Source: an uncultured Clostridia bacterium
GTDB taxonomy: Bacteria; Bacillota; Clostridia; Christensenellales; CAG-138
Length of the DNA: 63,721 bases
Assembly: GCA_905235205.1 (NCBI GenBank)
Contig: CAJOKM010000001.1
Span: forward strand, 1 to 63,721
Direction: 5' to 3'
Within the stretch, counting starts at the first letter, position 1; every line of letters starts with the position of its first letter. The notes under the pieces are model-generated. The model ran no database searches and had not been told where the DNA came from. It saw only the letters and a list, made by a program, of their open reading frames with translations. Of the stretch, positions 1 to 27,021 are shown in pieces. The translations under genes were made by a program, and so were the position numbers.

Positions 1-708
1 TATAAGGAGAATGTGAAGGCGGGTACCGCGTACATCTTCATCACGTTCCCGAACAAGGACTACAAGGACTGCAGAACGTGGTTCAAGATCTATCTGCCGC
101 CAACGACTTCGACGAAGGTCGAGAACGTAGAGAACGGCATCAAGATCAGCTGGACGAAGGTGGAAGGCGCCGCGGGCTACGTGGTCTACCGCCGCGCATG
201 GAACCTGAAGGATGCGGGCTGGACAACGTTCGAGCGCTGGAACAACACGACGGGAACGTCGTGGGTCGACACGAAGGTCTACGCGGGCACGCGGTACCAG
301 TACGGCGTGAAGGCATACTTTGCAAGACGTGCGGATGCAGTGACGGGCGCGATGATCGGCGGCAACGTAGGCGACAACTACAACCTGGGTCTGGTCGGAC
401 CGCTGAAGACGACGGTACGCATCACGACGCGCGTGCTGAACAGCGTCACGCCGGGCAGCAAGAAGCTGACGGTGAAGTGGACGGGATCGAGCCTGTTCAC
501 GGGCTACCAGATACAGGTCGCAACGGATGCGAAGTTCACGCAGGATCTGAAGACGGTGACGGTCGACAACGCGAAGACGTACGAGAAAGCGGTCACGGGT
601 CTGAAGGCGAAGACGACGTACTATGTACGCGTGCGTTCGTACCACATCTTCGAAGGCATGACCTACTACGGCCAGTGGTCGAACGTTTTGAACGGCAAGA
701 CGAAGTAA
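1..708 (+). CDS. C-terminal fragment of a secreted/cell-surface protein with fibronectin-III-like repeats (5' end outside window)
   Basis: Frame is open from nt 1 (YKEN precedes the GTG listed at 13); stop TAA at 706-708. Two Fn3-like units (GIKISWTKVEGAAGYVVYRR; LTVKWTGSSLFTGYQIQVA...TTYYVRVRSY). Family call from motif memory only. Confidence 0.7.
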   Translation, partial: YKENVKAGTAYIFITFPNKDYKDCRTWFKIYLPPTTSTKVENVENGIKISWTKVEGAAGYVVYRRAWNLKDAGWTTFERWNNTTGTSWVDTKVYAGTRYQYGVKAYFARRADAVTGAMIGGNVGDNYNLGLVGPLKTTVRITTRVLNSVTPGSKKLTVKWTGSSLFTGYQIQVATDAKFTQDLKTVTVDNAKTYEKAVTGLKAKTTYYVRVRSYHIFEGMTYYGQWSNVLNGKTK

Positions 709-6147: not shown

Positions 6148-6729
6148 TTATGGCGCGATCCTGCGGATCAGTTCCTTTTGTCGAATTAGCTGATCCCGGA
6201 TGCTGCAAAACACATCCGCTTCGGTTGTTTCCGCTTCTCGGGAAGCCGGCATCGATCTGCTCCGGGCGATCGCGTCCGTATACGCCGCGATGCCTCTTTG
6301 CAAGGCACAAAGGGTTTCTTTGTCCAGGATCAACAGCTTTCCGTCCTGATAGTAGGCATGCATTTTTTCTGCTGTATCGATCAGCTCGTCAAGCGCTTCT
6401 TCTCTGATGATCCCGTCCTGTGCCGACTGAAGATACTCCAACAGCATCTCTTCCAGCGCAGCGCAGGTATTGTTGATCCGCACGGCTTCCTTTTCCGCGC
6501 GAAAGTCTTCCGCCGTTTTCCCCCGGTTTTTGAACTTCTTTCTGATCCACATGACGAAAGCGGTCAGAATGCCGAGAGAAATGCCGTAGGTAGCGGCTTC
6601 CAAAACAGCATCTCCGTCGATCCGGTTCTCGGAACCGTCGTCATGGACAGCACGACAAAGCGTTTTTCCCGAGCTGAGGCTCGAGAGCAAATCCGGGTGG
6701 ATTTCCGGATTCACACCGACTTCGATCAT
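6148..6729 (-). CDS. Hypothetical single-TM protein
   Basis: Start MIEVGVNPE at 6729 with SD GGGAGG. One hydrophobic helix (ATYGISLGILTAFVMWI) followed by a helical, acidic C-terminal half. No family recognised. Confidence 0.5.
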   Translation of the reverse strand: MIEVGVNPEIHPDLLSSLSSGKTLCRAVHDDGSENRIDGDAVLEAATYGISLGILTAFVMWIRKKFKNRGKTAEDFRAEKEAVRINNTCAALEEMLLEYLQSAQDGIIREEALDELIDTAEKMHAYYQDGKLLILDKETLCALQRGIAAYTDAIARSRSMPASREAETTEADVFCSIRDQLIRQKELIRRIAP

Positions 6730-6880
6730 CTTCAACGTTCCTCCCGACTTATCGAAAGCATTGTAGCATGAAAACCGCTGTAAAATCAACAGATATGCGA
6801 AAACGGACAGGAACCGCGGCGGAGCAAGGCGAAGCGATGATTCTTCGCATGTTTCTTGGGCATCAGAAAAAGATGCTTGG

Positions 6881-7028: not shown

Positions 7029-7057
7029 TTGACGGAAACAGCGGGCACGTATACAAT
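7029..7057 (+). promoter_or_regulatory. Sigma70-type promoter of the five-gene TIR operon
   Basis: TTGACG (7029-7034), 17-nt spacer, TACAAT (7052-7057). SD GGAGGA at 7097-7102; ATG at 7108. Confidence 0.6.
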
Positions 7058-7107: not shown

Positions 7108-7917
7108 ATGGTGAGGTTTTCGGAGCTTTTTCCGCCGTATGGGGGCGAACAGCCGTATCTGTATTTTTGCTTTTCAGACGCGGATGCGAGGCGACTGCGG
7201 TCGCTGTTTCGGCGGCTGTATGAACGCGGCTGCCGCATCTGGTACCCCATAGGGCACGGCAGCACCGCTTTAGAGCGGGAACTGCGCGATGCGCGTATGC
7301 GCAAGGCACGGCTTGTGGTCCTGTATCAGACCAAACGTGCGCGTATGGATCAGGCGGTAAAGAGCGCGGTGCTCGTTTGTCAGGAGAAGAGCATCCCGAT
7401 CATCAGCCTCGACGCGGACGACGCGGAAAGCACGCTGTCCATGGGGCTGGATTCACGCGCGGTCCATCTCAAAATGCGCAGCGTCGATGCGACGGAAACC
7501 GCATTGCTCCATGCGAACGGCTTTTCACAGGAGTTGATCGGTCCATCGTTGCCCGTTCGCAAAAAGCCGGTTCTTGCGATTGCAACCGCAATTTTCGCCG
7601 CTGTGTTTCTGATGATCGGCGCAGCGGCTCTGGTTCGGCGCCTTCGTCCGCCCCCGACGGAACAGCCCGGCGATACGGTTTTCTTTTCCGATCCCGTCCT
7701 GACCGCGGCGGTGCGGGACGCGCTTGGCGGCGAACCGATCACCGAAGAATCGCTTGAGACGGTTACGACGCTTCGTTTCGATGCGCTGCCCGAACATACG
7801 GATGAGCTTGCTTTGCTTTCCAATCTTTCCCGCATCAAATTGAATCAGGCGAATGCGGACGACGCCGCTTCGCTTCTCGAACGGTATGAAATCGTGCTGA
7901 CGGGAGGCGGGCTATGA
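7108..7917 (+). CDS. TIR-like domain / single TM / short LRR-cap protein (paralogue 1, degenerate TIR)
   Basis: The N-terminus LFPPYGGEQPYLYFCFSDAD...RIWYP...LVVLYQ parallels the gene-2 TIR core. TM helix at aa 154-176 (PVLAIATAIFAAVFLMIGAAALV). The C-terminus FFSDPVLTAAVRDALGGEPITEESLETVTTL is an internalin-type LRR N-cap. The stop overlaps the next start (ATGA). Confidence 0.8.
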   Translation: MVRFSELFPPYGGEQPYLYFCFSDADARRLRSLFRRLYERGCRIWYPIGHGSTALERELRDARMRKARLVVLYQTKRARMDQAVKSAVLVCQEKSIPIISLDADDAESTLSMGLDSRAVHLKMRSVDATETALLHANGFSQELIGPSLPVRKKPVLAIATAIFAAVFLMIGAAALVRRLRPPPTEQPGDTVFFSDPVLTAAVRDALGGEPITEESLETVTTLRFDALPEHTDELALLSNLSRIKLNQANADDAASLLERYEIVLTGGGL

Positions 7918-9089
7918 GCGTCTACTTTAAGCCGTACGAGGGCAACCGCCCCTACCTTTTCATCAGCTATTCGCACCGCGATTCCGAGGCGGTTCTCAAA
8001 ACCATCACGCTGCTGCACAATCGCAAGCTGCGGCTATGGTACGACGAGGGCATTCCGGCGGGCAGCGATTGGCCGAAAAATATCGAAGAGCATATGCAAA
8101 GCTGCTCGATGGTGCTGTTCTTTGTCTCCGAAGCCGCGTTGGATTCTCCCAACTGTCTGAGCGAGATCGAAGCCGCGCTTGCGCTGAAAAAGCCCGTTCT
8201 GCTGCTGCCGCTTTCGGATACGACGCCAAACGCAAAATGGAACGAGCTGCTTCCGCAATGTACAAGGCTTTCGTCCGGTTCCGATGCTTCTGCGCGTACC
8301 GAAACGGTTCTTTCCTGCAAACGGGTTACGCGTGCGTACTATCGCAGACCGCTTGAAAACCTGCGGTTCGATCGACTGATGCTTGTGTTCGCGCTGTTGC
8401 TGCTTGTTGCCGCCGCGACAGGACTGTATGCGCTGATAACGGGGCGGTTGGACCGCTACCTCCTTCCGCCGTCGACGCCCGTACCGACCGCGCGTCCGAC
8501 ACCGAGCGCTATGCCCGTGCCGACCGAAACGTCCGAACCGACGGCGACGCCGTACGTTCCCGGCATGGAAACGGTCACATTCCCGGATGTAAAGCAGGAA
8601 ACGGCGGTACGCAGCGCGCTGGGCGTTCCCGACGGCGATATAACGCTTTCCGATCTCGGCGGCGTGACGGAGCTGCATTTTTGCGGAACGATGGTGCTCA
8701 ACGATTTATCTGACGTCGCTTTCACAGAAGGCGCCTATGCCGTAAACGGCGCAAAACCGCTGACCGGTCCTGTCAAGGATCTCTCCGTGATCGGGCGGAT
8801 GCCGTATCTTGGGAGGCTTTCGCTGATCATGCAGCCGGTACAGTCGCTTGCCGCGCTCGATCGGCTCATGCTTCTGAACGAATTGAGCCTTGCGGGCTGC
8901 GAAAGCGTGGATCTTTCGACGCTGCCGGTGCTGCCGAGCCTCAATACGCTGCACCTTGAACACAGCAATGTGCGCGATCTTTCCGCGCTGAACACACAGC
9001 CCTCGCTTGAGACCGTGACTGTAAGTATCGATATGCTGCCGCTGACGTTTGCGGACGATGCGGCGTTTGACGTTGTTTTAGTACCGTAA
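7914..9089 (+). CDS. TIR domain / single TM / Pro-Thr linker / LRR protein (paralogue 2, canonical TIR)
   Basis: PYEGNRPYLFISYSHRDS...LWYDEGIPAGSDW...VLFFVSEAALDSPNCLSEIEAAL...PVLLLPL is a textbook bacterial TIR_2 pattern. TM at aa 155-177. Linker PPSTPVPTARPTPSAMPVPTETSEPTATP. Then LRRs (LSDLGGVTELHF, LSVIGRMPYLGRLSL, LAALDRLMLLNELSL...). Confidence 0.9.
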   Translation: MSVYFKPYEGNRPYLFISYSHRDSEAVLKTITLLHNRKLRLWYDEGIPAGSDWPKNIEEHMQSCSMVLFFVSEAALDSPNCLSEIEAALALKKPVLLLPLSDTTPNAKWNELLPQCTRLSSGSDASARTETVLSCKRVTRAYYRRPLENLRFDRLMLVFALLLLVAAATGLYALITGRLDRYLLPPSTPVPTARPTPSAMPVPTETSEPTATPYVPGMETVTFPDVKQETAVRSALGVPDGDITLSDLGGVTELHFCGTMVLNDLSDVAFTEGAYAVNGAKPLTGPVKDLSVIGRMPYLGRLSLIMQPVQSLAALDRLMLLNELSLAGCESVDLSTLPVLPSLNTLHLEHSNVRDLSALNTQPSLETVTVSIDMLPLTFADDAAFDVVLVP

Positions 9090-9119
9090 CCATTCGAACA
9101 CAGATGAAGGAGGCCTCTC

Positions 9120-12100
9120 ATGGTCAAGATTACGTACCGAAAAAAGAAGCTGTTCCCGCTGTATGCCAAGGCCGACGAGGAGAAGGTCATGCCGATCCTC
9201 GAAGCGTTGAAGGCAAAGGGATTTCCGATCGCAGACGAAAGTGATACGCCGAACAAGCGCTGCGTGATGCTGCTGTTCACGTCAGAACGGCTGAACGAAA
9301 CCCCTGCGCTTTCGGAAACGTTCTTCGCCAATGACGCGAAGGGGGTGGGGACGGTGCCGGTGAACCTCGACGGATCGATGCCGCCGGAGCTGCTGAAAAA
9401 CGCGCTCTATTCGCGCAACACGATCTTTGCCGAGCGCTACTCCGTAGACGAGCTTGCGGAACGCATAGCGACCGCAAAGCCGTTCGAAGTGTCGAAAAAG
9501 CCGCTTCCGATCATCCTTACGGCTGCCGCTGCCGTTCTCGTGATCGCCGGAGGCATTTTCTTTGCGACAAAGCTGCTGCCCGCAAAGGAAGCGGTCGCAC
9601 CTGAACCGACGGCGGAGCCGATCATTCCCACCGAAGCGGGGCTTACCGCGGCGGACCTTGAAAACGTCTATGAGCTGATCATCATCGGCGATGAATTGCA
9701 CTATTTCACCGGAACCGAAGGGATCGCGGAGAAAAACGGCTGGGCGCGCATCGGCGCCGAGTACTTTGCCAACCGCACCGAGGAGGATCTGCTCGTGCAC
9801 TGGTACAGCAAGGAGGACGGGCACGAGATCGGGCTTGCCGCATGGAACGACCTCGACTTTTTGCGGTACATGAAGAATGTGAAATTCATTACGCTTGTGC
9901 GTGTGGCGGGAGAACTTCCGGATCTTTCGGGTCTTGAAAGGCTCGACAATGTGGAACTGCTGGATTGCGACGTCACGAGCCTCGACGGACTGAAAAACGC
10001 CCGGATCGTCAATTTCGACTATTCCGGCAATACGCTGACGGACTTTTCGCCGCTGTCCGACTGCGAACGGCTTCGCTCTGCGTATCTGACGCTGTTCGAC
10101 CCGATCCCCGCCGATCTGACGTCCTTTGGGCCGCCGAGTTTGACCGAGCTTTACCTCGACACCGACAGCTCGGCAAGGACGATCGACCTTTCCGGCTTGC
10201 AGAACTGTCCCGATCTTTCGACTGTCAGGCTCGACAGCCTGCCTCTGACCGATCTTTCCTGCCTTTCCGCATGCAAAAAGCTGCACGAGCTGGAGCTTGT
10301 GACCATGCCGGAGCTTCGAAGCCTTGACGGATTACAGGATCATCAATATCTGTTTCGGCTCAGAGTCGATGAATGGAGCGAGGACCTGCGCGACTGCTCG
10401 GCGCTTTCGGACAACATAAGCCTCCATTACGTCGATCTGCATAACGGCGCATTAAACGATCTTTCGTGGCTTTCGAACGCAAAGAATCTCGAAGAGCTTG
10501 ATCTTTGGGGCATGAACGGCATGCGAAGCCTGCGTGGTCTCGAGGAGCATACAAGCTTACGGCGCGTGCATATCGAGGGGCTGGAACACCTCACCGACAT
10601 CTCTGCGCTCGAAAGCTGTACGGGACTTTTAGAGATCCATTTGAGCAGCGTCTTCGACCTTTCGGACGTCTCCCCCGTCGTGAAGCTTCCGAATCTCAAA
10701 AGTTTTGAAATCTACGGCTCGCAGCTTCGAGACGTCGGCTTCCTTTCGGATATCGTCAACAAGAACGGCTTCTCCTTCGGTATCGCGGAGGTTGACGACT
10801 GGTCGGGGCTGGAGGCGATTAAAAACTACGACTATCTGAACGTCACCGACCGCACCGGAAGCGCCCTGCCCTATCTCAGGGACGCAAAGATCCACACCTT
10901 CGAACTTTGGTGCCGCAGCGACTACAGCAATTGGAGCCGGGAGCCGCTCGACTGGTCGCAGTTCCCGAACGTCACGCAGAATCTGACGCTGCACGGGGTC
11001 GTGTCTTTGGAAGGCATGCCACAGCTTCCGATCACGGGGCTGTTCATCGACGATTCGCAGACGCTGACGTCGTTGGAGGGCATTCAGAATCTGTCAAATG
11101 CGAAAAACGGCATGCTGTGGCTGAATGTCAAGGGCTGTCCGCGTTTGACGGACTGGTCGGCGCTCGGCGGAATGAAGCTTGCCGAAATCTGCTGTGAAAA
11201 TACGTTCACGCTGCCGGACTTTGCGGCGATCGATACAAGTTCTATCGAGCTGATGGAGCCGGTCGATCTCTTCGACTTGCACTGTTTCGACGGCATGGAT
11301 CCGGATCGCAGCGTCTCCATCGAGCTGTTCCAGACGATGGACGTTACCGATCTAAAGCCGCTGTACGGAATCAAAAACGGCTACCTGCTGAAGGTCCCCG
11401 CGCATCTCGGGGAGCAGGCGCAGCTGCTGGTGGAAAGCGGCAATTTCCGCGATTACGAGATCGTCTATCCGGACGAGTGGTGGGAGCCCGCCGAGTTTCA
11501 TGTGGAGCTCCTGTCGTTCAACGAGCTCGACACGCTGCCGAGCGCGGTGTTAAGCCGTGTGAAGGATCTGAACGCGGTCGGCGATGTGATCTTTTCCTGG
11601 GAGGAGTATCGGCCGGATCAGCAATGGGACGGCGATCAGCCGACCTTTGTGCTGCAGTCGAACGACGGCGACGAAAGCCACGACATCGTGATCGAGCATC
11701 CCGGCACGCTGACCGATTTTTCCAAGCTGTCCAAACTGACCGGACTCGAACAGCTGAACCTGATCTGTCAGTCCTTTACATCGGTCGACGGCATTCAGAG
11801 TTTGCAGGAGCTTCGGGATCTTGAACTCTCCTTCACGCCGACGCTGACCGACGCGTCTCCTGCGTTCACGCTGCAGCAGCTCGAAGACCTGCACCTGCAG
11901 TATACCGGCGTGACAAGCATACAGGGCGTTCAGAATCTGCAGAATCTGCGCTGGATGGATCTGAACGGATTGAAGCTCGACGATCTCACCCCGCTCGGCG
12001 GCATACCGGAGGACTGCGGTTTCACGTTCGACTTCCCGCTGATGACGGTCGATGAATTCCTTGCGCTGCCGGACAGCGTGCTGTCTCGCATCCGCGAGAT

Positions 12101-12956
12101 CGGATTTTTCGGAAAATACGTGACAAAGGACCCGTGGGGCGATCTGTGGCTGGAGGAGGACTGGGACGGCGGCGACAGGCCGGAGCTGTATCTGCACGAC
12201 AATGCAACCGGCGAACGCTTCCCGATCGGGGAGGGACCGATTGCCGATCTTGGGCTTTTGACCCGCTTGCCGAATCTCGAAACGCTGTATTTGTACGGAC
12301 AGCCGATCGAATCGCTCGGCGGCATCGAAGCAGCCGGAAATCTCCGTCGGTTCGATTCGCGCTGGACAAATCTTTCCGATCTTTCGCCGCTGTATGATCT
12401 CCCGCAGATACAGGTCGTCTGTATCGAGAACACGGAAACGGTCACCTCGATCGAGGGCGTACAGAAGCTTCCGCATCTGACCGATCTGAACATCGGCGGC
12501 GACAACCTGACGGACATAAGCGCGATCGCAGAGATTAACTATTCGTTCTGCATGACGCCGGACGGGGACGGCAATGTGCCGTACTTCGTCCTCGGCGTGG
12601 ACAACCTGCAGGGGAAAATCCCGGATGAGCAGTATGCGGTTCTGTCCGCCGTGCCGGAGTATCAGAGCCTGAACGTGTTCAACACGGACTGCGCGCTGTG
12701 GATGGATGCTGTGAAGGATGTGAAAATCCATGAGATCCACGCGGGCAACTGCCGCTTTACCAACGAATCGTTCCGGCAGTTTATCGAACAGCACCCCGAG
12801 CTCGAATACATCAAGGTGTCGTGGACGCCGGAACTCACCGATATTTCGCCGCTTTTGACGCTTCCGAATCTGCGCGCGGCGTGCGTGTCGAACAATATGC
12901 AGCCCGCGATCCGGAGCCTGGGCGACGGATACGGGTTTGATCTCGAGATCGAATAA
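9120..12956 (+). CDS. Divergent TIR-like domain / single TM / very large LRR ectodomain protein (paralogue 3, 1278 aa)
   Basis: SD GAAGGAGG. The N-terminal ~120 aa (KKLFPLYAKADEEKVMPILEALKAKGFPI...VMLLFTSERLNETPALSETFF) is a diverged copy of the TIR core. TM at aa 129-150. More than 1,100 aa of 22-residue internalin-type LRRs follow (LTDFSPLSDCERL, LTDLSCLSACKKLHELEL, LNDLSWLSNAKNLEELDL...). Confidence 0.85.
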   Translation: MVKITYRKKKLFPLYAKADEEKVMPILEALKAKGFPIADESDTPNKRCVMLLFTSERLNETPALSETFFANDAKGVGTVPVNLDGSMPPELLKNALYSRNTIFAERYSVDELAERIATAKPFEVSKKPLPIILTAAAAVLVIAGGIFFATKLLPAKEAVAPEPTAEPIIPTEAGLTAADLENVYELIIIGDELHYFTGTEGIAEKNGWARIGAEYFANRTEEDLLVHWYSKEDGHEIGLAAWNDLDFLRYMKNVKFITLVRVAGELPDLSGLERLDNVELLDCDVTSLDGLKNARIVNFDYSGNTLTDFSPLSDCERLRSAYLTLFDPIPADLTSFGPPSLTELYLDTDSSARTIDLSGLQNCPDLSTVRLDSLPLTDLSCLSACKKLHELELVTMPELRSLDGLQDHQYLFRLRVDEWSEDLRDCSALSDNISLHYVDLHNGALNDLSWLSNAKNLEELDLWGMNGMRSLRGLEEHTSLRRVHIEGLEHLTDISALESCTGLLEIHLSSVFDLSDVSPVVKLPNLKSFEIYGSQLRDVGFLSDIVNKNGFSFGIAEVDDWSGLEAIKNYDYLNVTDRTGSALPYLRDAKIHTFELWCRSDYSNWSREPLDWSQFPNVTQNLTLHGVVSLEGMPQLPITGLFIDDSQTLTSLEGIQNLSNAKNGMLWLNVKGCPRLTDWSALGGMKLAEICCENTFTLPDFAAIDTSSIELMEPVDLFDLHCFDGMDPDRSVSIELFQTMDVTDLKPLYGIKNGYLLKVPAHLGEQAQLLVESGNFRDYEIVYPDEWWEPAEFHVELLSFNELDTLPSAVLSRVKDLNAVGDVIFSWEEYRPDQQWDGDQPTFVLQSNDGDESHDIVIEHPGTLTDFSKLSKLTGLEQLNLICQSFTSVDGIQSLQELRDLELSFTPTLTDASPAFTLQQLEDLHLQYTGVTSIQGVQNLQNLRWMDLNGLKLDDLTPLGGIPEDCGFTFDFPLMTVDEFLALPDSVLSRIREIGFFGKYVTKDPWGDLWLEEDWDGGDRPELYLHDNATGERFPIGEGPIADLGLLTRLPNLETLYLYGQPIESLGGIEAAGNLRRFDSRWTNLSDLSPLYDLPQIQVVCIENTETVTSIEGVQKLPHLTDLNIGGDNLTDISAIAEINYSFCMTPDGDGNVPYFVLGVDNLQGKIPDEQYAVLSAVPEYQSLNVFNTDCALWMDAVKDVKIHEIHAGNCRFTNESFRQFIEQHPELEYIKVSWTPELTDISPLLTLPNLRAACVSNNMQPAIRSLGDGYGFDLEIE

Positions 12957-12968
12957 GGAGGAAGAACC

Positions 12969-14999
12969 ATGGCATACACCGCTTTGGAGCAGATGCGAAC
13001 GGTCAACAGAGAGCGCTTCGGCGCGGATGTCGGACCGTTTGAACCGGCGCTGTACGGCGCGGGCAGAACGGGCAGCGATTTGAAATCCGCCGCGCTGCGG
13101 TTTTTGCACGAGCGCTGCGAGGGACTGCGCTTCTCGCCCGAAAAGGCGCAAAAGGAGAAACAGACCGGACAATATCTCGGCACGAGTTTCCGACCGAATC
13201 AGATTCCGTACAACATGCAGATGGATCTCGACCGACTTTGTCTTGAACGCGAACTGGAGAGCTTTATCGACTCCGGCGTCGCCGAGGACGCGTACACGGT
13301 CTATTACAGCTTTTTGAAGATGTTCCTCGGCGCCTACGGACGCTCGAGCAAGATGATCGAGCTTTTATCGGAGTTTGAATCGAACGCCAGCTCCCTTCTG
13401 ATGAAGCATCGCGATCACTATTCCCACTCGGTTTATGTGTTCGCGCTGGGGCTCGCGATCTACGAAACGAACGAGCGGTTCCGCACGACGTTTCAAAGAT
13501 TCTACGGCTTCACGTCCGATCGGGACGAGCATTCCGCCGCGGCGTTCTTCCTGGAATACTGGGGGCTGACCTCGCTGTTCCACGACATCGGCTACCCGTT
13601 TGAGATCCCGTTTGAACAGGTGCTCGCCTACTTCGAGGTCGACCGCAAAAAACGCGGCAACGGCAGCCTGTACCTTGCCTATCGCGACCTTGACTGCCTG
13701 TCCGGTCTGGACGAAATAACAAGCGCGCATCTTGCAGCGCTGTTCGGGAGACCGTTCGACACCGTGGAGGAGCTGCTCGCTTACGGAATCGGGAAACGGC
13801 TCGGCGCAGCATACGATGTGACGGAAGAATACCTGCTCGATACGATCCGCCGGAAACCCGTCGAACCGAACCGATTCGGATACTTCATGGATCACGCGTA
13901 TTTTTCCGCGACGCGGCTCTGTCAGGAGCTTTGCGAGGTGCTCGGCGAACAGGCGCTGACCGAAGCGCACGTCGACGCGCTGACCGCGATCATGCTGCAC
14001 AACAGCCTTTATAAGTTCGCGATCGCGTTTTATAAGGATCCGGACAGGCGAAAGCCGCCGCTCAAAGCCGAGCTGCATCCGCTTGCGTACCTTTTGATGC
14101 TGTGCGACGAGCTGCAATGCTGGGACCGTACCGCGTACGGCAGGAATTCTCGCACCGAGCTGCATCCGATGGACGCCGAGTTCGATTTCGGCAGGGGCAT
14201 GATCCACGCGCTCTACTGTTTCGACGCCGAGGAATCCGAAAAGATCGGCGAGTACGAAGCGCGCTACCGCGCGTGGGAACAGGGCGGCAAGCAGGATGCG
14301 CCCCCGCGCTTGAAGGCGTACAGCGACATGGCGGAAACCGAACAGCGCTTCCGCACGGACATCGAAAAGATCGTCGATCTAAGTGACTATCCGCTGTTTA
14401 TCACGACGTTTATGCGCACCGCGGACCGCAAGAGCAAGCATACCTATCTGTCCGGCAGCAGCTTTCTGCACATGTACGATTTTGCCGTGGCGATCAACGG
14501 ACGCTATCAGTATGAGGGCAGGGAGCAGGAAGTTTCCGTGGAGCAGCTCGAACGCGATTTTGATACGATGTCGCTCGAGTATCAGCTGAGCAACATCAAC
14601 CAGGTCAAGAGCTTCTCGAAGTACCTGAACGCGATCGGCTGCTTCTACACGGACCGCCCGGTCGATTTTGAAATGCTGCGCGCGTTTACCGCGGAACAGA
14701 CAGCCGTGTTCGCGCCGATGGAGCACGCCCGCTGGGTGCGGTCACATCGCGCGATGGACTGGACTGCCGGAAATCTCTATGAAACGGTTGCAGCGGACGG
14801 AGAAACGAACCGCTTTGTGCTGCGCGAGCAGATGCGGCAGCACAAGCTGTGCATGAACGGCGATTTCGGAGAGCTCGAGATCGCGCGGCACTATCTCAAC
14901 CTGTCCGAGGCGGATCAAGGCAAGGACTGGAAACCGTTCAATTCCATGTTGAAGCTGATCCGCAAGTTCGACGGACTGCGAATCTACAAACTCGGTTGA
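12969..14999 (+). CDS. HD-domain phosphohydrolase (SAMHD1/dGTPase-style motifs) with C-terminal RyR-type repeats
   Basis: SD AAGGAGG, 12 nt after the previous stop. HD motifs RDHYSHSVYV, LFHDIGYPFE, MLHNS, LCDELQCWDR. C-terminus MEHARWVRSHRAMDWTAGN...RQHKLCM...LSEADQGKDW...MLKLIRKFDG compares with the RyR repeat pattern (HE.W..GWTYG..K..HPCLV..LPE.EK...LKTLLALG). A degenerate first repeat is FAVAINGRY...LSNINQVKSFSKYLNAIGC. Confidence 0.85.
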   Translation: MAYTALEQMRTVNRERFGADVGPFEPALYGAGRTGSDLKSAALRFLHERCEGLRFSPEKAQKEKQTGQYLGTSFRPNQIPYNMQMDLDRLCLERELESFIDSGVAEDAYTVYYSFLKMFLGAYGRSSKMIELLSEFESNASSLLMKHRDHYSHSVYVFALGLAIYETNERFRTTFQRFYGFTSDRDEHSAAAFFLEYWGLTSLFHDIGYPFEIPFEQVLAYFEVDRKKRGNGSLYLAYRDLDCLSGLDEITSAHLAALFGRPFDTVEELLAYGIGKRLGAAYDVTEEYLLDTIRRKPVEPNRFGYFMDHAYFSATRLCQELCEVLGEQALTEAHVDALTAIMLHNSLYKFAIAFYKDPDRRKPPLKAELHPLAYLLMLCDELQCWDRTAYGRNSRTELHPMDAEFDFGRGMIHALYCFDAEESEKIGEYEARYRAWEQGGKQDAPPRLKAYSDMAETEQRFRTDIEKIVDLSDYPLFITTFMRTADRKSKHTYLSGSSFLHMYDFAVAINGRYQYEGREQEVSVEQLERDFDTMSLEYQLSNINQVKSFSKYLNAIGCFYTDRPVDFEMLRAFTAEQTAVFAPMEHARWVRSHRAMDWTAGNLYETVAADGETNRFVLREQMRQHKLCMNGDFGELEIARHYLNLSEADQGKDWKPFNSMLKLIRKFDGLRIYKLG

Positions 15000-15012
15000 A
15001 AAAGGAGAGCGT

Positions 15013-16602
15013 ATGGCAAAGCATGATACGATCCCGATCGTCGTCGGCGTGACCGGGCATCGGGATCTTCGCCCCGAGGATCGGAACGTTTTATCCGATG
15101 CCGTCAAACAGGAACTGACCGCGCTGCAGAAAAAGTGTCCTCATTCCGAGATTGTCTTGATGAGCAGTCTTGCCGCGGGCGCGGATCAGCTTTGTGCCGA
15201 GGCTGCGCGGGATTGTTCCGTTCCGCTGATTGCCGTTTTGCCGATGGAGCAGCCGGAATATGAACAGGATTTTTCGGGGGAGGAGCTTGTCGCGTTCCGC
15301 TCCATTTTGAGCGCTGCCGCGGATTGCTTTGTCGCACCTCGCACGGAGCAGGCACCGACCGCGCCGGATCGGGACTTTGCGTACCGGCAGGCGGGCATCT
15401 ATGTCGCTTCGCACGCGCACGTACTGCTTGCGCTTTGGGACGGAACCGAATCGCCCGCTTCCGGCTGCGGAACTGCGGCAACAGTGCATTTTGCGTTGGA
15501 CGGCGCATATATACCGGAGCATTCCATCCCGCTCGGCGGCGGCTGTCCCGTGCTGCAGATCCAAACGCCGCGCAACGGCACCGATGCAGTCAACGCCGGA
15601 GACGTGCGTTTTCTCGGCGATCGCGCCGCATTTGAGGAGATTTTGTCGCGAACCGACGAGTTCAACCGCCTTGCCGCAAAAACGTCCTCGTCCGGATCGG
15701 AGCTTTTGCCCGCGGACCGGGAACCGGACGCGCAGCTCGACCGGTTGGAAACGCTGTATGAAAAGGCGGACGCATTGAGCGTTCGCTTTGCAAAACAGTA
15801 CCGGAGGATTCTTGCCGCGCTCGCGGTCGTCAGCACGATCATCACGATCGCATTCCTTCTGTATGATGAAGCCGAACTGCATTGGATGATTCTCGTTTGC
15901 GGTTTTATGCTGCTGTCCGCGTGGCTGATTCAGTACAGCGGAAAACGGATCGCCTGCCATAGACGGTATCTGGAATACCGGACGCTTGCGGAAAGCATGC
16001 GCGTGCAGGCATTTCTGCGGTATGCAGGGAGCAGACTGCCCGTTTCCGGGATCCTGCCGTGGTCGGCGCGTTCGGAGACCGGATGGGTCGCCGCAGCGCT
16101 GAAGACCGGCGCCGTCAGCACGCCGTATCCCATGCACAGCATCCGTGCGCCGTGGGTGGAACAACAGAGGGATTATCACGTCCGCGCCGCGCAAAAGACG
16201 AAGCGCGCGCTGTTCTTCAGCGAGCGCATCGTCAAAGCCGCCCTTTGGATCAGTGTCGCTTTGTATCTGGGCGTTCTGGTATTCGAACTCGTTTGGGGCG
16301 ACCTGCTGCCGTTCGGCACGCATATTGCCGGTGCCGACCGCTATCGAACGCTGTCCAAACTGCTTCTCGGCGGCGTATCCGCGGCAACGCTGTTCATTTC
16401 CAATTATTTCGGGCGGCTGTCTCTCTCCCGCGCCGTTTCGGATCACAACAAAATGAAGCGGTTCTACAGCGCCGTGCTGAATCGACTCGATCGGTACGGT
16501 CAAACGGACGAACTGCTGCGGCAGCTTGCAAGGGAGGAACTGATCGAAAACGGCAGCTGGTGCTCCTACCGGCGCGACAATTCCGCCGAGTTCAGTTTGT
16601 GA
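15013..16602 (+). CDS. SLOG-like (DprA/LOG/YpsA-type Rossmann) domain fused to four TM helices (two SLATT/DUF4231-like 2-TM modules)
   Basis: SD AGGAGAG, 13 nt after the previous stop. N-domain: IPIVVGVTGHRDL, IVLMSSLAAGADQLCAEAA, PLIAVLP, VLLALWDGTESPASGCGTAATV. C-half: ILAALAVVSTIITIAFLLY / WMILVCGFMLLSAWLIQY followed by HRRYLEYRTLAESMRVQAFL. Then AALWISVALYLGVLVFELVW / LLLGGVSAATLFISNYF. Domain names from motif memory. Confidence 0.85.
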   Translation: MAKHDTIPIVVGVTGHRDLRPEDRNVLSDAVKQELTALQKKCPHSEIVLMSSLAAGADQLCAEAARDCSVPLIAVLPMEQPEYEQDFSGEELVAFRSILSAAADCFVAPRTEQAPTAPDRDFAYRQAGIYVASHAHVLLALWDGTESPASGCGTAATVHFALDGAYIPEHSIPLGGGCPVLQIQTPRNGTDAVNAGDVRFLGDRAAFEEILSRTDEFNRLAAKTSSSGSELLPADREPDAQLDRLETLYEKADALSVRFAKQYRRILAALAVVSTIITIAFLLYDEAELHWMILVCGFMLLSAWLIQYSGKRIACHRRYLEYRTLAESMRVQAFLRYAGSRLPVSGILPWSARSETGWVAAALKTGAVSTPYPMHSIRAPWVEQQRDYHVRAAQKTKRALFFSERIVKAALWISVALYLGVLVFELVWGDLLPFGTHIAGADRYRTLSKLLLGGVSAATLFISNYFGRLSLSRAVSDHNKMKRFYSAVLNRLDRYGQTDELLRQLAREELIENGSWCSYRRDNSAEFSL

Positions 16603-16815: not shown

Positions 16816-16860
16816 CACCCCATTTGTCAGTGTTACGCCATAGGGCTGACAAATGGGGTG
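16816..16860. terminator. Hairpin between the convergent TIR operon and amylase gene
   Basis: CACCCCATTTGTCAG, 15-nt loop, CTGACAAATGGGGTG (15-bp perfect stem). On the minus strand it is followed by TGTTTATATG. Confidence 0.5.
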
Positions 16861-16903
16861 CAGTTCACAGTTGCGGCAATCCCGTATTTTCTCAGAAAGC
16901 CGG

Positions 16904-19900
16904 TTACGGCTGAAGCGGAAGCGAATCGATCAGCGCAATGACATAGCGCAGGATTGCCGCCGCATCGCCTGCAGTGACCTGTGTGTCACAGTCAACATCT
17001 GCGTTGAGCATGCCGAGCGGCGTGAGCGTCGAGAGCCCGACAATCGAGCGCAGGACCATCGCCGCGTCCGCGGAAGTGATCTTTCCGTCGCAGTTCGCAT
17101 CGCCGTACACGATCGGGATCATCGGAAGCACGACGTCCTTCGTCTGGGCCGTAAACGGCTCCTTCGTGAATACGGCGGTGTAGCGTCCGAGACCGTCCGC
17201 GCCGGGGGAGGGCTCGGTCACGACTTCATAGGTTACCGTACCCGTTTCTGTGACGATATGGCTTTCGTCATTTCTGCAGACGGCGGATGCTTCAACCGTA
17301 TAGCCCGTATCGGTCTCTGCCCATACATAGACGGGTTCGCCGTAATCGTGTCCCGTTGCGCCGAGCGTTTCGGCGACCGTATTTGTAAAGGCCTTTTCGT
17401 GGAAGACGACCGTCGCCGTATGTTTGCGCTCGCCTTCTGTCGTGCAGCCCGGATGAACCGTGATCTCGGTTTCGATCGCGTCGCCCGCGGCTGCAACATC
17501 GATCTTGAACGTTGCGTCATCCTTTGCGGTGAACGTCGCAGTTGCGGACGAATAATCTTCCGCCCACTGCCAGGTCGGCTCATTGTACAGCCGCGCAGAC
17601 TGCGTGTACGTCGCAGTGTAAACGGCGTTTCCGACGGCAGGACTCAACTGAGGGGTCCAACCGCTGAACGTGTAGAGATATGCTTCCGTCGGCGCCTTAA
17701 CCGGAGTTTCTCCGGTGTATACGGGCGTCTCTCCATGCTCCGTTTCCACGCGCAGCAGTTCGGTGCCGTCTTCATTTTGGAAGATGATCACGTAGACAGC
17801 CTTTTTAAACGTTGCGGAAACGGTGACATTGCCTTTCGGCATAACGAACGAAGCAGTGTTGTCATCGTTCAGTGTGACCTCAACCGTGTTCGATCCCTGT
17901 GTGACCGTGACCGTGTCGAGCACATAGCCGGTTTCCGGCTCGAAGGTCAGTGTGACGGTCTCGTTTTCTTCGGCGTAGGGCTTATCCGCCGAGACCGTGC
18001 CGTTCCCGGTTCCGGCGGAAACGGTGACCTGATACATCCGCGCTACCTTGATGTAGTTTGCAAACCATTCGCTTCCGGTGCCCTTGTGCGGGCGGAAGTA
18101 GACGCGATAGCGGCCGCTTGCGGTGATCTCGCCGTGTTCGCCGTAGTTGTTGCCCATGCCGGTCGGGTACCAGGTCGTTGTTGCCGAGCCGTTGGCAGAA
18201 TACACAACCTTGAACTGGCTGGACGTTGTCAGGTTGATTTCATGCTTGTATTCCTCGGGATCGACGCCGATCTTCGTCATCTTATATGCGGAGTTGACGC
18301 TCCAGCCGGTCATGCTGCCGACCAAATAATATCCGGACGCTGCCAGCGGAGAATTCGGATCCACATAGAGACAGTTCTTGAACCAGTCGTCGGGTCCGTC
18401 GTAGCCCGGACGGAAATAGACGCGGTAAACGCCGCCTTCGGTGATCTCGCCGTTCTCGCCGTAGTTCTCCGACGGATCGGGGTACCAGACCGTTTTCTCC
18501 ACGCCGTCATCGGAGTACACGACCTTGAACTGGTCGTTCGTCATCAGTTCAACGTCGAGATAGTATTCGTTCGTGCTGGCGAACTCGTTCTTCGTCAGCA
18601 TGTATTCCGGCTTGAGGCTCCAGCCGTTCATGGTGCCGACGAGGTAGTATCCTTCCGCCTCGATGGGTGTCGCCTCGATCAGTTCAATGTAAATGCAGTT
18701 TTTATACCAGTCGTCCCCGCCGGAATAATCCGGGCGGAAATAGACGTGATAGGTGCCGCGTACGGTAATCTGATCGTCTACGCCGAAGTTGTCCGCCGGA
18801 TCGGGGAACCACTTTGTTTTGGTCTCGCCGTCCGCAGAGTATACGACCTTGAACTCGTCGCCCGTCTTCAGTTCGAGGTCGATGACGTATTCGTTCGCAG
18901 CGGTTCCCTCGTTCTCGGACAGCTTGTAGGCCGGATTGATATTCCAGTCGCTCATCGTACCGACCAGATAATATCCCTCGCCGCCGACAGCGGTCTTTTC
19001 ATACCAGCTCCAGGTGCCGCTTCCGTTCCAGTCGTCTTCCGTGACCGTGAAACAGTTGGTGCCGTTATCCGGATACAGATCGGCCGTCTGGTTCCACCTG
19101 GCGTCCCAGTTGTTCTCGGCGGCGTCCGGATCCATTCGGCAGAAAATCACCTTATTCCATTCGCCCTCGGGAAGTTCCGCTTCATAGACGCCGTCCCCGT
19201 CCTCGTCGGTCATGCCGACCCATTGCTCGTCGAGGCCGGTGTTATAGACGTACATTGCAAAACGGGCGCCGTCCTGTTTCCAGGTTTCGCTCGGTATCAG
19301 ATACAGAGGGGAAACATTGAGACTGTCCGTCGGAGCGTTTTCCGGCGTGTAGATGACGGCAACGCCGCTTGCGCCGACGGTGCCGCTGATGACGCCCTGC
19401 GATACGGTGAACGTGTTCTTCGTGACCTGATCCGTGTAGACGCCGTCCTTCATCCGGTATACAGGCAAACTGACCGCGCCCGCGCCGTTGAGATTTGAAA
19501 TCACGATTCCGTTCGTGCCGCGCTCAATGTATGCAACGTTGCCCGAGGAGGAAAGGTATTCGCTGGTTCCGTCAAAGTGATTCTTGAACTTGTTGATCTC
19601 CGCGACCGAAGGATCCTTCCACGTTTCATCGGTACTCGCCATACCCATCGTCTCGTTCGGTCTTGCCAGGAACAGCGAGGTGGAATCCGCTCTCGCGCCG
19701 ACGATCGCCCATGTCCTGACGATCACTGCGTCGGAGATGCCGGACGAATTATTGTGCATATAGGTGTCGTGCGATTCCGCCCAGAGCACACAGTCCCGCG
19801 GGATCGCTTTTTTCTGATACTGGAAGCTTGCAAGTCCGGAGGCGTTTTTGCTGTTCGCGTTCGAGCGCGCGCTGTCGCCGGTGTCGTTGTCGGTCACGGC

Positions 19901-21147: not shown

Positions 21148-21164
21148 GATAAGTCAACATTGAT

Positions 21165-21190
21165 TGGTTTGATGGATGTTGATAAACCGA
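21165..21190 (-). repeat. Second, degenerate anti-repeat-like copy upstream (5') of the functional anti-repeat
   Basis: 21170-21187 (TGATGGATGTTGATAAAC) is identical to repeat positions 13-30. The flanks are diverged and it lacks the part complementary to the repeat 5' end. Confidence 0.8.
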
Positions 21191-21212
21191 CATCATCCCT
21201 GAGCACAGAATC

Positions 21213-21241
21213 ACTATACCACAGAAACAGTAAGGAGTCAA
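21213..21241 (-). promoter_or_regulatory. Strong sigma70-type promoter for tracrRNA, overlapping the cas9 SD
   Basis: Minus strand: TTGACT (21241-21236), 17-nt spacer, TATAGT (21218-21213), with an upstream TG (extended -10 TGGTATAGT). The -35 overlaps the cas9 SD AAGGAG (21232-21237). Confidence 0.65.
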
Positions 21242-21243
21242 GT

Positions 21244-24200: not shown

Positions 24201-24384
24201 GTCCGTCTATGATATGAAAGCGCAGAGAATATACACGGCAGATCGAACCAAGGGCCGAAATGAAAAATCCATGGGCATCTTAAAAAACGATCGGGTGGAA
24301 AAACTGGACGTGTCGATCCTCGGTGATCTCGGAGGAATTGTGCCATGTGGAAAACCATTCTTGTCGGAAATGACGCGATCCTGA
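21244..24384 (+). CDS. cas9: Cas9, compact type II-C-like (1046 aa)
   Basis: ATG at 21244 with SD AAGGAG. RuvC-I IGLDIGIGSVGWA. Arg-rich bridge helix RRGYRSARRLVRRRAHR. HNH YEIDHIIPYS...LHNKVLV...CNQAKGQRTP. RuvC-III NLHHAVDAVVIAN. Only cas1 and cas2 follow (no csn2 or cas4). Confidence 0.97.
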   Translation: MEQKLNYVIGLDIGIGSVGWAAINLDKRRIEDFGVRLFDSGEDTRQKERKSQQRRGYRSARRLVRRRAHRTVRLRQLFDKIGLVSADVLDRYYQNPTANPLELRVRGLTDKLSPAELAAALLHIGKHRGFNEFYSLHDEEKKLLSKDEKNDLTRAEAYETLKKSMPDMTPAQLYLSHPMFMSEFGVRYRNTKKQDESKKVLVPRSEIEKETHRICEKQAAFYPCLTEQNREKIYEILFRQRDFEDGPGDPNDETRPYKGFLETIGNCRFYPELKRGARQSVLGDLFVLINRLSQNRYFNAETGEVVDSADAYREIIEKALLSGSLEIKEAEKILKRYGTEMLNTNDKSADSPNRCLAFIRMIKPILEKNGFIWEDIIRAEYPFAPYREDSFLNQVGKILSENRTPQRRVNLLKQAGISDAVAKALANRKTSGTVSVSNRYMLEAVEAFMNGELFGAYNARREKELLAETRAAKKYKKLPPIEEGDYIDNPVVFRSINETRKVLNAVIEKYGSPNAINIEIAAELSRTFDERDRMNREKTRNEKENKRLQEQIAELLHTKDEIMPTQVERYRLGESQGWKCPYCGASIVMETAIRRDDHSYEIDHIIPYSLILDNTLHNKVLVHHGCNQAKGQRTPLMYLGNDAAKKADFVKWVNAAFNKDCVSKRKREYLLQPDLNDERMHDWKTRNLNDTRYIAKYLVRYLNENLLFDSEEKTNVYAVKGAITSQLRRVWLNKETWGCEDKTGLRKESNLHHAVDAVVIANCMPGYIELAEEALRLRRMYHEEGKRETEKWTAVLNNAVDRLYRYYCMPKVYAEQMLRNIKRIPSFIPNLREEVDTRFCGCGLENEAGYRSKIRTFYRDDPAFAAQIRMPLVSYKPNRKATGKVTADKAVKKGASQGLLVKKIAEDNTTTLDDASYYCTEVYRRKDGTLGLRGIRYSMLKKMQGKIVLADTLQEDYATHEVYLFKNDYIRIYDKNNKIKFEGYYLSVYDMKAQRIYTADRTKGRNEKSMGILKNDRVEKLDVSILGDLGGIVPCGKPFLSEMTRS

Positions 24385-25582: not shown

Positions 25583-25616
25583 TACTTGTGGCAGAAGGCC
25601 GGGAAATACCAAAAAA

Positions 25617-25636
25617 CCGCAAGATGTTGCGGTTTT
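25617..25636. terminator. Small bidirectional hairpin between cas2 and the first repeat
   Basis: AAAAAA-CCGCAA-gatg-TTGCGG-TTTT. The 3' G and the U-tract belong to repeat 1. On the minus strand the hairpin is followed by U6. Confidence 0.35.
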
Positions 25637-26918: not shown

Positions 26919-27021
26919 CGGCGCAATGAACGAATTCTTGCGCACCTGCTCGATACGCCTTCTTGCGTCATCCAGGACCGCTGTGGAATAGCGAATCATA
27001 AAACCCTCCGTCGACTCGATG

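Follow-up and report, generated by a model that had tools for sequence, protein, structure and literature searches.

Of central interest in the window analysed here, the 63,721-nt stretch of contig CAJOKM010000001.1 (assembly GCA_905235205.1) from an uncultured Clostridia bacterium, is a cassette of five tightly spaced open reading frames (ORFs), all on the forward strand at 7108-16602 and here called g1 to g5, which on balance we believe to be one operon encoding a single signalling system. The products of the first three genes (the trio) appear to be membrane proteins with an N-terminal TIR or TIR-like domain, one transmembrane (TM) helix and a C-terminal ectodomain of leucine-rich repeats (LRRs); g4 is predicted to join an HD-like signature to a RyR/R12-type domain, and g5 a SLOG domain to a SLATT-type membrane domain. 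The reading that we narrowly favour is a surface receptor complex, in which binding by the extracellular LRRs would lead to a TIR-made nucleotide signal that gates the SLOG-SLATT pore. An earlier note on this DNA had described a unit of three tandem genes; those three ORFs stand at their coordinates, but the unit is one of five genes, g4 and g5 being coupled to the trio.

The layout of the cassette is compact. Ribosome-binding sites (RBS) of the GGAGG type precede each of g1, g2 and g3, the g1 stop and g2 start overlap as ATGA (an overlap also found at other loci), and the remaining intergenic gaps are 12-30 nt. The promoter-like site in front of g1 (Table 1) is given as a candidate only, because such sites are no more frequent in this region than in shuffled sequence by the same consensus scan. 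The cassette is bordered upstream by a divergent glycerate-kinase-type gene (DUF4147/MOFRL) and downstream by a convergent gene for a dockerin-bearing alpha-amylase.

TIR-type domains of the trio

Of the three N-terminal domains, that of g2 alone looks like a canonical TIR and is predicted to be catalytically intact. It matches Pfam TIR_2 well above the cut-off (E 4.6e-17, 63 bits vs. 28), which places it in the TIR superfamily, with sub-threshold PADLOC matches of the ThsB-like and SAVED_TIR kinds (E 1e-5 to 1e-3). In 22 g2 homologues with 46-84% identity to the window copy, the motifs FxSYSH, WYDEGIxAGxDWPxNI and SxNCxSE are invariant, S83-E84 included, and in alignment the WCxxE motif of the Cat1 TIR ('SDWCWDELE') has its Glu at the position of E84. 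Cat1 is a CRISPR-associated TIR that we take to be an NADase. The g2 TIR is also the best conserved part of the trio, with a median identity of 52% and 31% of its columns at least 90% conserved in 77 orthologues.

The corresponding domains of g1 and g3 are degenerate. The match of g1 to Pfam TIR_2 is weak and below the cut-off (E 0.028), and the g3 N-terminus has no TIR_2 match in Pfam. Profile-profile comparison (hhalign) of families built from 80+ loci relates the g1 N-terminal family to the g2 TIR profile with 99.3% probability (E 2.7e-20) and that of g3 with 96.4% (E 1.3e-9), and by these profiles both domains are homologous to the g2 TIR. In the same alignments the g1 column equivalent to E84 holds an Ala (A87) and is not conserved, the g3 column has no conserved residue, and a 13-residue BB-loop segment (WYDEGIPAGSDWP) is missing in g3. 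The conserved Glu of the alpha-C 'WCxxE' motif, the mark of a catalytic TIR, is present in g2 and absent from g1 and g3. The earlier note had given all three proteins alike a TIR-type core: the homology extends to all three, but because the catalytic Glu is missing from g1 and g3, and from g3 the BB-loop segment too, the term is literal for g2 only, and the three are not equivalent TIRs. The simplest reading would be that g2 is the catalytic subunit and that its TIR partners g1 and g3 are non-catalytic.

Ectodomains and membrane orientation

The ectodomains are as unequal as had been described (about 93, 214 and 1128 aa in g1, g2 and g3) and are mutually homologous: the g1 cap is homologous to that of g2 (82.5% probability, 46% identity over 37 columns) and the first ectodomain module of g3 to the entire g2 ectodomain (98.3%). 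Among Pfam families g3 matches LRR_4 (3e-26) and LRR_EndoS (4.8e-15), in the PDB internalin A (2.8e-20) and in NCBIfam, below cut-off, internalins A and H (1e-26 and 2.4e-25). The PDB internalins match these ectodomains at 1e-20 to 1e-32, N-terminal cap included, and the alignment of the g2-family ectodomain profile with internalin 4fmz (2.4e-32) begins at the cap, 'FPD..L...IR..L'. By these matches the LRRs are of the internalin type. The short g2 ectodomain is conserved. The ectodomain of g3 is the least conserved part of the cassette, with 26% median identity and 7% conserved columns in the 77 orthologues, and at other loci g3 is present in one to three tandem copies with lengths of about 900-1950 aa. 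A self-BLAST of g3 gave no off-diagonal matches at E 1e-3, and because of this no defined module count is offered.

A hydrophobic N-terminus is absent from g1, g2 and g3, in agreement with the earlier statement that the proteins have no signal peptide. Each has one strongly hydrophobic 19-aa segment at the TM position, the basic stretches quoted earlier are found ahead of it in all three, and the Pro/Thr stalk follows directly on the helix in g2, varying across the family. In all three families the hydrophobic segment (about 19 aa, KD about 2.5) is conserved in position though not in sequence. Lys plus Arg were counted per family in the 15 residues before and after the helix. In the g2 family the means are 3.72 before and 1.00 after, with an excess before the helix in 75 of 78 members; in the g3 family they are 3.72 and 2.03 (63 of 78), and in the g1 family 2.57 and 1.73 (41 of 74, with 22 ties). 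The three proteins are likely to be type-II membrane proteins, with a cytoplasmic N-terminus and the C-terminal LRRs outside the monoderm membrane, a sidedness that we infer from the charge bias and by analogy.

Part of this analogy is a neighbour protein of 570-582 aa, found in seven of the loci (Table 1). Its N-terminal part is a Ser/Thr kinase, matched best in NCBIfam by the PASTA kinase Stk1; RKKRKR, a single TM helix and an internalin-type LRR module with its cap follow, and the ectodomain is about 30% identical to that of g2. This paralogue shares the LRR module in the established orientation of PASTA kinases, by which the LRRs of the trio would lie outside. By analogy the protein would be a bacterial counterpart of the plant LRR receptor kinases. 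The inside-TIR, TM, outside-LRR layout of the earlier note is favoured by the positive-inside bias of the families, the Pro/Thr stalk, the internalin cap and the kinase paralogue, but less so in g1, where the bias is slight.

Two of the loci that carry the kinase-LRR gene also have, between g4 and g1, a conserved ORF of 185 aa with no Pfam match (Table 1), which may be an extra component of this variant of the cassette.

Distribution and linkage of the cassette

Relatives of g2 were found in 202 of 185,579 species-representative genomes. The homologues fall into at least 361 clusters at 90% identity, and among 1.84 billion representatives at 50% identity there are 107 matches at E <= 1e-30, about 45 of them apparently full-length. 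The survey of the TIR-TM-LRR architecture and its neighbours that the earlier note had called for was built on the best 80 loci, and in all 89 non-duplicate loci were read; g4 and g5 emerged as recurrent partners. The best 80 loci are all from metagenome-assembled genomes of uncultured Clostridia, labelled Oscillospiraceae, Ruminococcaceae, 'Lachnospiraceae', Christensenellales, Ca. Limivicinus and Saccharofermentans, with record titles that mostly name ruminant gut sites.

The order g1-g2-g3 is kept in 86 of the 89 loci, the exceptions being L091, where the trio is absent, and L054 and L080, which depart from it at g1; a g1-like ORF lies directly 5' of g2 in nearly all loci, again excepting L054 and L080, the latter disrupted by the assembly. 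Thirty loci are fully flanked, with at least 4.5 kb on both sides; in 21 of these the trio is accompanied by g4 and g5, in two by g4 only and in seven by neither. The gene orders of the cassette are permuted (12345, 41235 and 41253) and the flanking genes vary between genomes, the flanks of the window having no counterpart in nine of the closest loci searched, including L007, L009 and L010, whose g2 is 79-85% identical. The linkage of g4 and g5 to the trio thus survives rearrangement, which argues for a functional connection. From the seven loci with the trio alone it follows that the trio may work without g4 and g5, or that its partners lie elsewhere. As candidates for a replacement effector these loci offer only housekeeping genes (Maf, YfbR-like HD_3, Nramp, DctP and others).

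At three loci about 1.4-3.2 kb is inserted between g3 and g4 (Table 1); these insertions could hold further components or mobile DNA.

The two genes are also found with a different receptor-like protein. L087 and L091 encode proteins of about 900 aa, 58% identical to each other, with a canonical TIR domain (TIR_2 E 1e-11, including the catalytic-type 'SRWCMRELE' with its WCxRE Glu), the basic stretch RRRERRRRIR, one TM helix and WD40-like beta-propellers. Directly 3' of each lies a g4 homologue (77% identity in L087, 70% in L091), followed in L087 by a g5 orthologue (61%). This architecture would represent an alternative ectodomain for the same downstream module. Common to the g4/g5 neighbourhoods is a TIR anchored in the membrane that bears a large repeat domain at its C-terminus, and because g4 and g5 pair with this unrelated TIR-TM-beta-propeller protein as well, the TIR, and not adhesion, is the common denominator.

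All five genes are under purifying selection, as judged by gene-wide ratios of nonsynonymous to synonymous substitution (dN/dS, Nei-Gojobori) against three close relatives. The ratios of the trio are 0.13-0.33; g4 is the most constrained of the five at 0.08-0.11, against 0.13-0.33 for the others, and is 84-90% identical where g2 is 50-85% and g1 39-83% identical.

The g5 and g4 proteins

The g5 product appears from its model to be a SLOG domain fused to a SLATT-type membrane domain. The window copy matches Pfam YAcAr, a SLOG family (3.6e-5, just under the cut-off), DUF4231 (5.4e-5, 24.0 bits vs. a cut-off of 24.7) and NCBIfam SLATT_3 (2e-4, below cut-off). Within the family, DUF4231 is matched in 21 of 26 members (best E 2.6e-7) and YAcAr in 17 of 26, and some database homologues are annotated as DUF4231. 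The AlphaFold2 model (pLDDT 83) has an N-terminal Rossmann-like domain, then long helices that include hydrophobic segments; its best PDB fold matches are YpsA (2nx2; E 4e-5, probability 1.0, TMt 0.63), DprA, ShosA and LOG-like proteins, with a weak and distant match to the ThsA SLOG domain with 3'cADPR (cADPR, cyclic ADP-ribose). The Rossmann-like fold and the Gly-rich nucleotide loop by which a SLOG domain is recognised are both present.

The g4 product is predicted by its AlphaFold2 model (pLDDT 75, pTM 0.83) to be a soluble all-alpha protein. Among Pfam, NCBIfam and PDB sequences the window copy finds no match, and a profile of g4 finds none in the PDB either. It is homologous (E 4e-32) to a 575-aa protein that fills the same slot of the cassette at other loci, and the C-terminus of this variant matches Pfam RyR (2e-14), the structures of RyR Repeat12 (1e-21) and Bacteroides thetaiotaomicron 3nrt (2e-10). 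Among 27 close g4 homologues, RyR is matched in 13 and Pfam HD in eight, all weakly (best E 4e-4 and 0.003, respectively), and the HD-like and RyR-like residues (Table 1) are each at least 93% conserved in 45 sequences covering both variants. The g4 family counts 2176 matches among the candidates scored.

In a 2026 preprint, phage proteins with the RyR/R12 domain (RyDEP) are reported to bind or cleave 2'/3'cADPR, at a site with a His/Asp dyad, a Trp stacked on the adenine and a His at the phosphates (PMC13232231). The RyR consensus has RyDEP-type residues at H, H+3 (W), H+25 (HP) and H+42 (YD), of which g4 keeps the His, Trp and Asp positions, and by its sequence the g4 C-terminus appears to belong to the RyR/R12 domain family. 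For the HD-like part, a Foldseek search with the model gave nothing significant, either against the PDB (best E 0.3, to the HD-like C-terminal domain of PPX) or against BFVD (0.07), and because of this the HD call stays motif-based. An hhalign comparison of the central region with two single HD proteins from the loci gave a misaligned and uninformative match of 2% probability.

Proposed mechanism and alternative readings

Both g4 and g5 appear to belong to domain families that handle TIR-derived ADP-ribose signals. Within the trio, g3 is likely the ligand-binding receptor, because its huge ectodomain is variable in sequence, length and copy number; g2 is likely the signalling co-receptor, because it combines a short conserved LRR ectodomain with the only catalytically intact TIR; and g1 is likely an adaptor or regulator, because of its degenerate TIR and minimal ectodomain. 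An extracellular ligand would be bound by the g3 ectodomain, and g3 would then join g2, in an assembly modulated by g1. The g2 TIRs, scaffolded by the non-catalytic TIR-like domains, would assemble an active site and turn cytoplasmic NAD+ into a messenger derived from ADP-ribose. This messenger would be bound by the g5 SLOG domain, on which the SLATT domain would open or oligomerise; the membrane would be permeabilised, or the cell would stop growing or die. The RyR/R12-type domain of g4 would bind the same messenger and, with the HD-like domain, would probably degrade it, as a threshold or reset; g4 might otherwise be a second effector. In this scheme we infer the topology, the hetero-oligomerisation, the signal chemistry, the signal reader and the biological trigger. 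Outside-in signalling by a bacterial TIR, as the earlier note had proposed, gains strong circumstantial support from the coupling to the SLOG-SLATT and HD-like/RyR proteins and from the beta-propeller swap, though it was and is a deduction.

As for its role, the complex would likely respond to a threat from outside, such as adsorbing phage, though nothing in the proposal is less certain than this. It is possible, though we hold it with a little more doubt than confidence, that these are TIR-based surface pattern-recognition receptors, in which a diversifying LRR or beta-propeller receptor, a catalytic co-receptor and a degenerate adaptor sense an extracellular agent before its entry. The agents would be adsorbing phage particles, predators or competitors, and the messenger would be read by the SLOG-gated SLATT pore and cleared by the HD/RyR enzyme. 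In favour of a role in defence are the known relatives of the parts, a genomic position that varies, the variation in receptor copy number and the CRISPR-Cas locus 4.5 kb away.

Several observations weigh against the receptor complex or against parts of it. The charge bias of g1 is weak, and internalin-type LRRs also occur in cytoplasmic Roco proteins, as a profile match to 5il7 indicates. The trio stands among housekeeping neighbours only in seven of the 30 fully flanked loci, and in two more g5 is missing. The dN/dS of g3 (0.18-0.26 against the three close relatives) gives no gene-wide positive selection. The Pfam matches of the window copy of g5 sit just below the curated cut-offs, the HD assignment of g4 is drawn from motifs and sub-threshold matches, and in a scan of all five proteins with curated PADLOC and NCBIfam models no system was recognised and no cut-off reached. 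Finally, the neighbours are mostly housekeeping genes and no g2 relatives were found in a scan of viral contigs, and because of these two findings a defence role goes without the usual 'defence island' support, the CRISPR-Cas locus being the exception in this window.

Several of these points can be turned toward other readings. The LRRs are of a type known from adhesins and invasins, dockerin-bearing surface enzymes are encoded nearby, the trio can stand without g4 and g5, and the catalytic residue is lost in g1 and g3, all of which would suit the alternative already raised in the earlier note, that the proteins are surface adhesins whose LRRs bind host, plant-fibre or neighbour-cell ligands, with the TIR-like domains for anchoring or oligomerisation and with g4 and g5 as a separate system, adjacent by chance. 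This now seems improbable, as it is weakened by the invariance of the catalytic Glu and BB-loop region in g2, whose TIR is what the trio conserves most, by a g4/g5 linkage that outlasts permuted gene orders and changed flanks, and by the pairing of g4 and g5 with the unrelated beta-propeller protein. Unlikely, but with more to commend it, is a physiological and non-immune role, in which the same wiring would sense an environmental or cell-cell cue through its LRR or beta-propeller ectodomains, the TIR product would be an ordinary second messenger, the SLOG-SLATT protein would be a reversible ion channel and g4 a phosphodiesterase-like 'off' enzyme. The wide and conserved presence in several families of rumen Clostridia under purifying selection would be expected of such a system, as would the housekeeping surroundings, the failure to find viral copies, a dedicated and very highly conserved candidate for the signal-degrading enzyme and a receptor-kinase-like paralogue at the same loci. 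Set against these, the characterised SLATT and TIR-SLOG pairings have so far all been cell-killing defence modules, the genomic position varies even among close relatives, and g3 varies in copy number and length as immune receptors do, though no one point is decisive.

We know of no characterised bacterial TIR immune system that senses infection other than in the cytoplasm, which the earlier note had taken as a premise, and the conserved short ectodomain of g2 would fit a structural part; hence the further reading of a Thoeris-like system with a cytoplasmic trigger, where a phage component would activate the g2 TIR from inside and the membrane anchor and LRRs would only localise the complex at the envelope, or block adsorption as an effector or decoy. 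It is quite improbable, as it does not explain repeat ectodomains of about 1000-1900 aa that are kept under purifying selection, duplicated and swapped for beta-propellers while the cytoplasmic parts stay small, and the cytoplasmic part of g3, a degenerate domain of about 125 aa, has little space for an intracellular sensor. A reversed or non-membrane topology, with no TM helix at all or with the N-terminus outside and the LRRs in the cytoplasm as in Roco-type proteins, would accord with the match to the cytoplasmic Roco LRR of Chlorobium (5il7) and with the Cys content of the g3 ectodomain (1.85%). It is hardly credible in view of the conserved position of the hydrophobic segment in all three families, a positive-inside bias that indicates an inside N-terminus, the requirement of a TIR for cytoplasmic NAD+, the small likelihood that a folded N-terminal domain of about 150 aa is exported without a signal peptide, and the same domain order in the kinase-TM-LRR paralogue. 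We continue to prefer the surface receptor complex.

Features of the cassette and of the surrounding window

The coordinates of the cassette, of its parts and of the related features at other loci are collected in Table 1.

Table 1. Features of the five-gene cassette in the window, with related features at other loci (prefixed by the locus)
Feature	Residues (aa)	Position (nt)	Strand	Basis and remarks
Candidate promoter-like site TTGACG-17-TACAAT		7029..7057	+	about 50 nt 5' of g1; consensus scan, 10/12 matches
g1, 269 aa: degenerate TIR-like + TM + short ectodomain		7108..7917	+	ORF, RBS
g1 TIR-like domain	1-150		+	degenerate, without catalytic Glu
g1 TM helix	155-173	7570-7626	+	19-aa hydrophobic segment
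g1 ectodomain (putative)	180-269		+	LRR N-cap motif FSDPVLTAAVRDAL, about 1-2 repeats
g2, 391 aa: canonical TIR + TM + Pro/Thr stalk + LRR		7914..9089	+	ORF, RBS, Pfam
g2 TIR	1-150	7914-8363	+	predicted catalytic Glu E84 at nt 8163-8165
g2 TM helix	157-175	8382-8438	+	19-aa hydrophobic segment
g2 Pro/Thr stalk	178-218		+	hypervariable linker after TM
g2 ectodomain (putative)	219-391		+	internalin-type cap, about 5-6 LRRs, conserved C-terminal cap
g3, 1278 aa: truncated degenerate TIR-like + TM + large LRR ectodomain		9120..12956	+	ORF, RBS, hhalign, Pfam
g3 TIR-like domain	1-125	9120-9494	+	truncated; without BB-loop segment and catalytic Glu
g3 TM helix	131-149	9510-9566	+	19-aa hydrophobic segment
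g3 ectodomain (putative)	about 1128 aa long		+	several internalin-type LRR blocks
g4, 676 aa: HD-like signature + C-terminal RyR/R12-type domain		12969..14999	+	homology, conserved residues
g4 HD-like signature		about 13386-14138	+	H150, H153, H205-D206, H309, H344, D380
g4 RyR/R12-type domain	about 575-666	14691-14966	+	E585, H586, W589, W598, D653
g5, 529 aa: SLOG + SLATT/DUF4231-type membrane domain		15013..16602	+	Pfam near cut-off, AlphaFold2 (AF2) model
g5 SLOG domain	about 8-222	15034-15678	+	GVTGHR loop, invariant
g5 SLATT/DUF4231-type helical membrane domain	about 240-529	15730-16599	+	profile matches, TM segments
Kinase-TM-LRR protein		L088:8150-9862; L092:6146-7864; L035:4715-6433; L040:4550-6268		neighbour protein
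Kinase-TM-LRR protein, remaining loci		L068:4717-6435; L070:7214-8935; L075:5331-7079		neighbour protein
185-aa ORF		L088:12039-12596; L092:10039-10596		between g4 and g1
Insertion between g3 and g4		L009:15061-16506; L054:5254-8405; L060:8628-11790
TIR-TM-beta-propeller protein		L087:7209-9989; L091:5266-7971		about 900 aa

Directly upstream of the cassette and divergent from it lies an ORF of 213 aa (6148-6789, minus strand) with no Pfam or PADLOC match, which is not conserved beside the cassette in other genomes. On the other side, the gene convergent with g5 (16904-20749, minus strand) encodes an alpha-amylase of 1281 aa that carries a divergent InlB B-repeat domain and, at its C-terminus, a type I dockerin; such a dockerin-bearing alpha-amylase indicates an amylosome-type organism of the Ruminococcaceae/Oscillospiraceae. 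A long forward-strand ORF opposite this gene (16853-19498) matches no Pfam family and is unlikely to be a gene.

Farther downstream, at a distance of about 4.5 kb from the cassette, the window carries a type II CRISPR-Cas locus (21160-26919), with a Cas9-like gene (21160-24384; HNH_4, RuvC_III), Cas1 (24345-25262) and a CRISPR array at about 25632-26919, in which the 36-nt repeat GTTTTGGGCCTCTGATGGATGTTGATAAACTGATAC occurs 20 times with a period of 65-66 nt. The GC content is about 0.50 over 20-28 kb, compared with 0.55-0.60 elsewhere in the window. The region at 28393-54827 is devoted to carbohydrate utilisation and is ordinary for a rumen degrader of fibre or starch; it includes an SBP_bac_1 solute-binding protein fused in a 974-aa ORF, DUF5696, a GH106 rhamnosidase/GH2, a GH38 alpha-mannosidase and a GH42-like protein.

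Comparison with known systems

In its parts the cassette comes close to Thoeris, in which type I has ThsB and the SIR2-SLOG protein ThsA, whose SLOG domain reads 3'cADPR, type III combines several TIR proteins with a SLOG effector, and type VII pairs a TIR with a SLATT effector and uses canonical cADPR as its signal (bioRxiv 10.64898/2025.12.03.692087). As there, the gene for a TIR that keeps the catalytic Glu lies next to that of an effector with a SLOG sensor and a predicted SLATT killing domain, with several TIR-family genes in one operon; the Thoeris arrangement of a TIR gene that shares its operon with a signal-binding effector is found here through g5, though not universally, given the seven of 30 loci without g4 and g5. 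Unlike Thoeris, all TIR proteins of the cassette are predicted to be membrane-anchored with extracytoplasmic repeats, the catalytic site is degenerate in two of these three, one protein combines SLOG with SLATT, and a conserved HD-like/RyR gene is added. The PADLOC and NCBIfam scan gave no ThsA-type match, g5 matching ShosA weakly, and membership in type III was rejected, as NCBIfam ThcB4 scores 15 bits on g2 vs. a cut-off of 220. SLATT has been predicted to be a nucleotide-responsive pore, and g5 is like the known SLOG-SLATT effectors in joining a SLOG nucleotide sensor to a predicted pore-forming SLATT domain (Kaur et al. 2020, PMC7159879); in the literature covered we found no partnership of these two with a membrane-anchored, ectodomain-bearing TIR and an HD-like/RyR protein.

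The likeness to Toll-like receptors (TLRs) and IL-1R lies in the LRR ectodomain, the single TM helix and the cytoplasmic TIR, with sidedness predicted in the cassette, and in the ligand-induced assembly of several TIRs, some of them scaffold only, that we propose for it. It is unlike them in its inverted, type-II order without a signal peptide, in LRRs of the bacterial internalin class with its cap, in a signalling TIR that keeps the NADase Glu, and in downstream parts that are predicted to bind nucleotides rather than being death-domain adaptors or kinases; the type I orientation, signal peptide and LRRNT/LRRCT-capped TLR-class LRRs of a true TLR are all lacking. By analogy the TIR-LRR proteins would work like TLRs and not be members of that family, and the resemblance is most simply taken as convergent.

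In plants, LRR receptor kinases pair a long-LRR receptor such as FLS2 with a short-LRR (about five repeats) co-receptor of the SERK/BAK1 kind. The long-LRR g3 together with a short-LRR g2 that bears the key catalytic cytoplasmic domain recalls this pair, as does the kinase-TM-LRR neighbour in seven loci, but the output of g2 would be a TIR and not a kinase, the membrane orientation is opposite and the hetero-dimer is putative. With the Listeria internalins (InlA, InlB, InlH, InlK; PDB 4fmz, 2omx, 1h6u) the ectodomains share the LRR class and N-cap, these being their best matches; the internalins differ in having a signal peptide, LPXTG or GW anchoring and no cytoplasmic part, whereas the cassette proteins would be anchored by an N-terminal TM helix after the TIR. 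The C-terminus of g4 keeps the His...Trp...Asp pattern that serves RyDEP (PF02026) for adenine binding and as the glycosidase dyad, but g4 is host-encoded, 676 aa long and fused to a large HD-like helical region, and the window copy is too divergent for a PF02026 match.

To our knowledge, TIR-coupled extracellular recognition has been regarded as an animal invention, and a conserved prokaryotic ectodomain-TM-TIR system would show that bacteria have this sensing logic as well. If the pattern-recognition reading is true, prokaryotes would have in the cassette a first case of outside-in TIR signalling, and a Thoeris-like system its first extracellular sensor, with g4 as the host-encoded counterpart of the signal-degrading RyDEP enzymes of phages. 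The cassette would make a tractable model for how ligand binding outside activates a TIR inside, could show how an active TIR is regulated by catalytically dead ones, and suggests that the RyR/R12 domain may also serve hosts; its binding and cleavage of cADPR-type signals in phages is a recent finding. The cassette has so far been seen only in uncultured herbivore-gut Clostridia, which live under high phage and protozoal pressure, and it may matter for rumen ecology.

Neither this cassette nor any bacterial TIR-TM-LRR receptor was found described in the literature covered, which does not include Burroughs et al. 2015, where they may be mentioned; in public annotations the proteins appear as 'TIR domain-containing protein', 'DUF4231 domain-containing protein' or 'hypothetical protein'. 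The parts, then, are of known kinds, and what is new is their combination: ectodomain-bearing membrane TIRs, two of them degenerate, together with a SLOG-SLATT fusion and a host HD-like/RyR protein.

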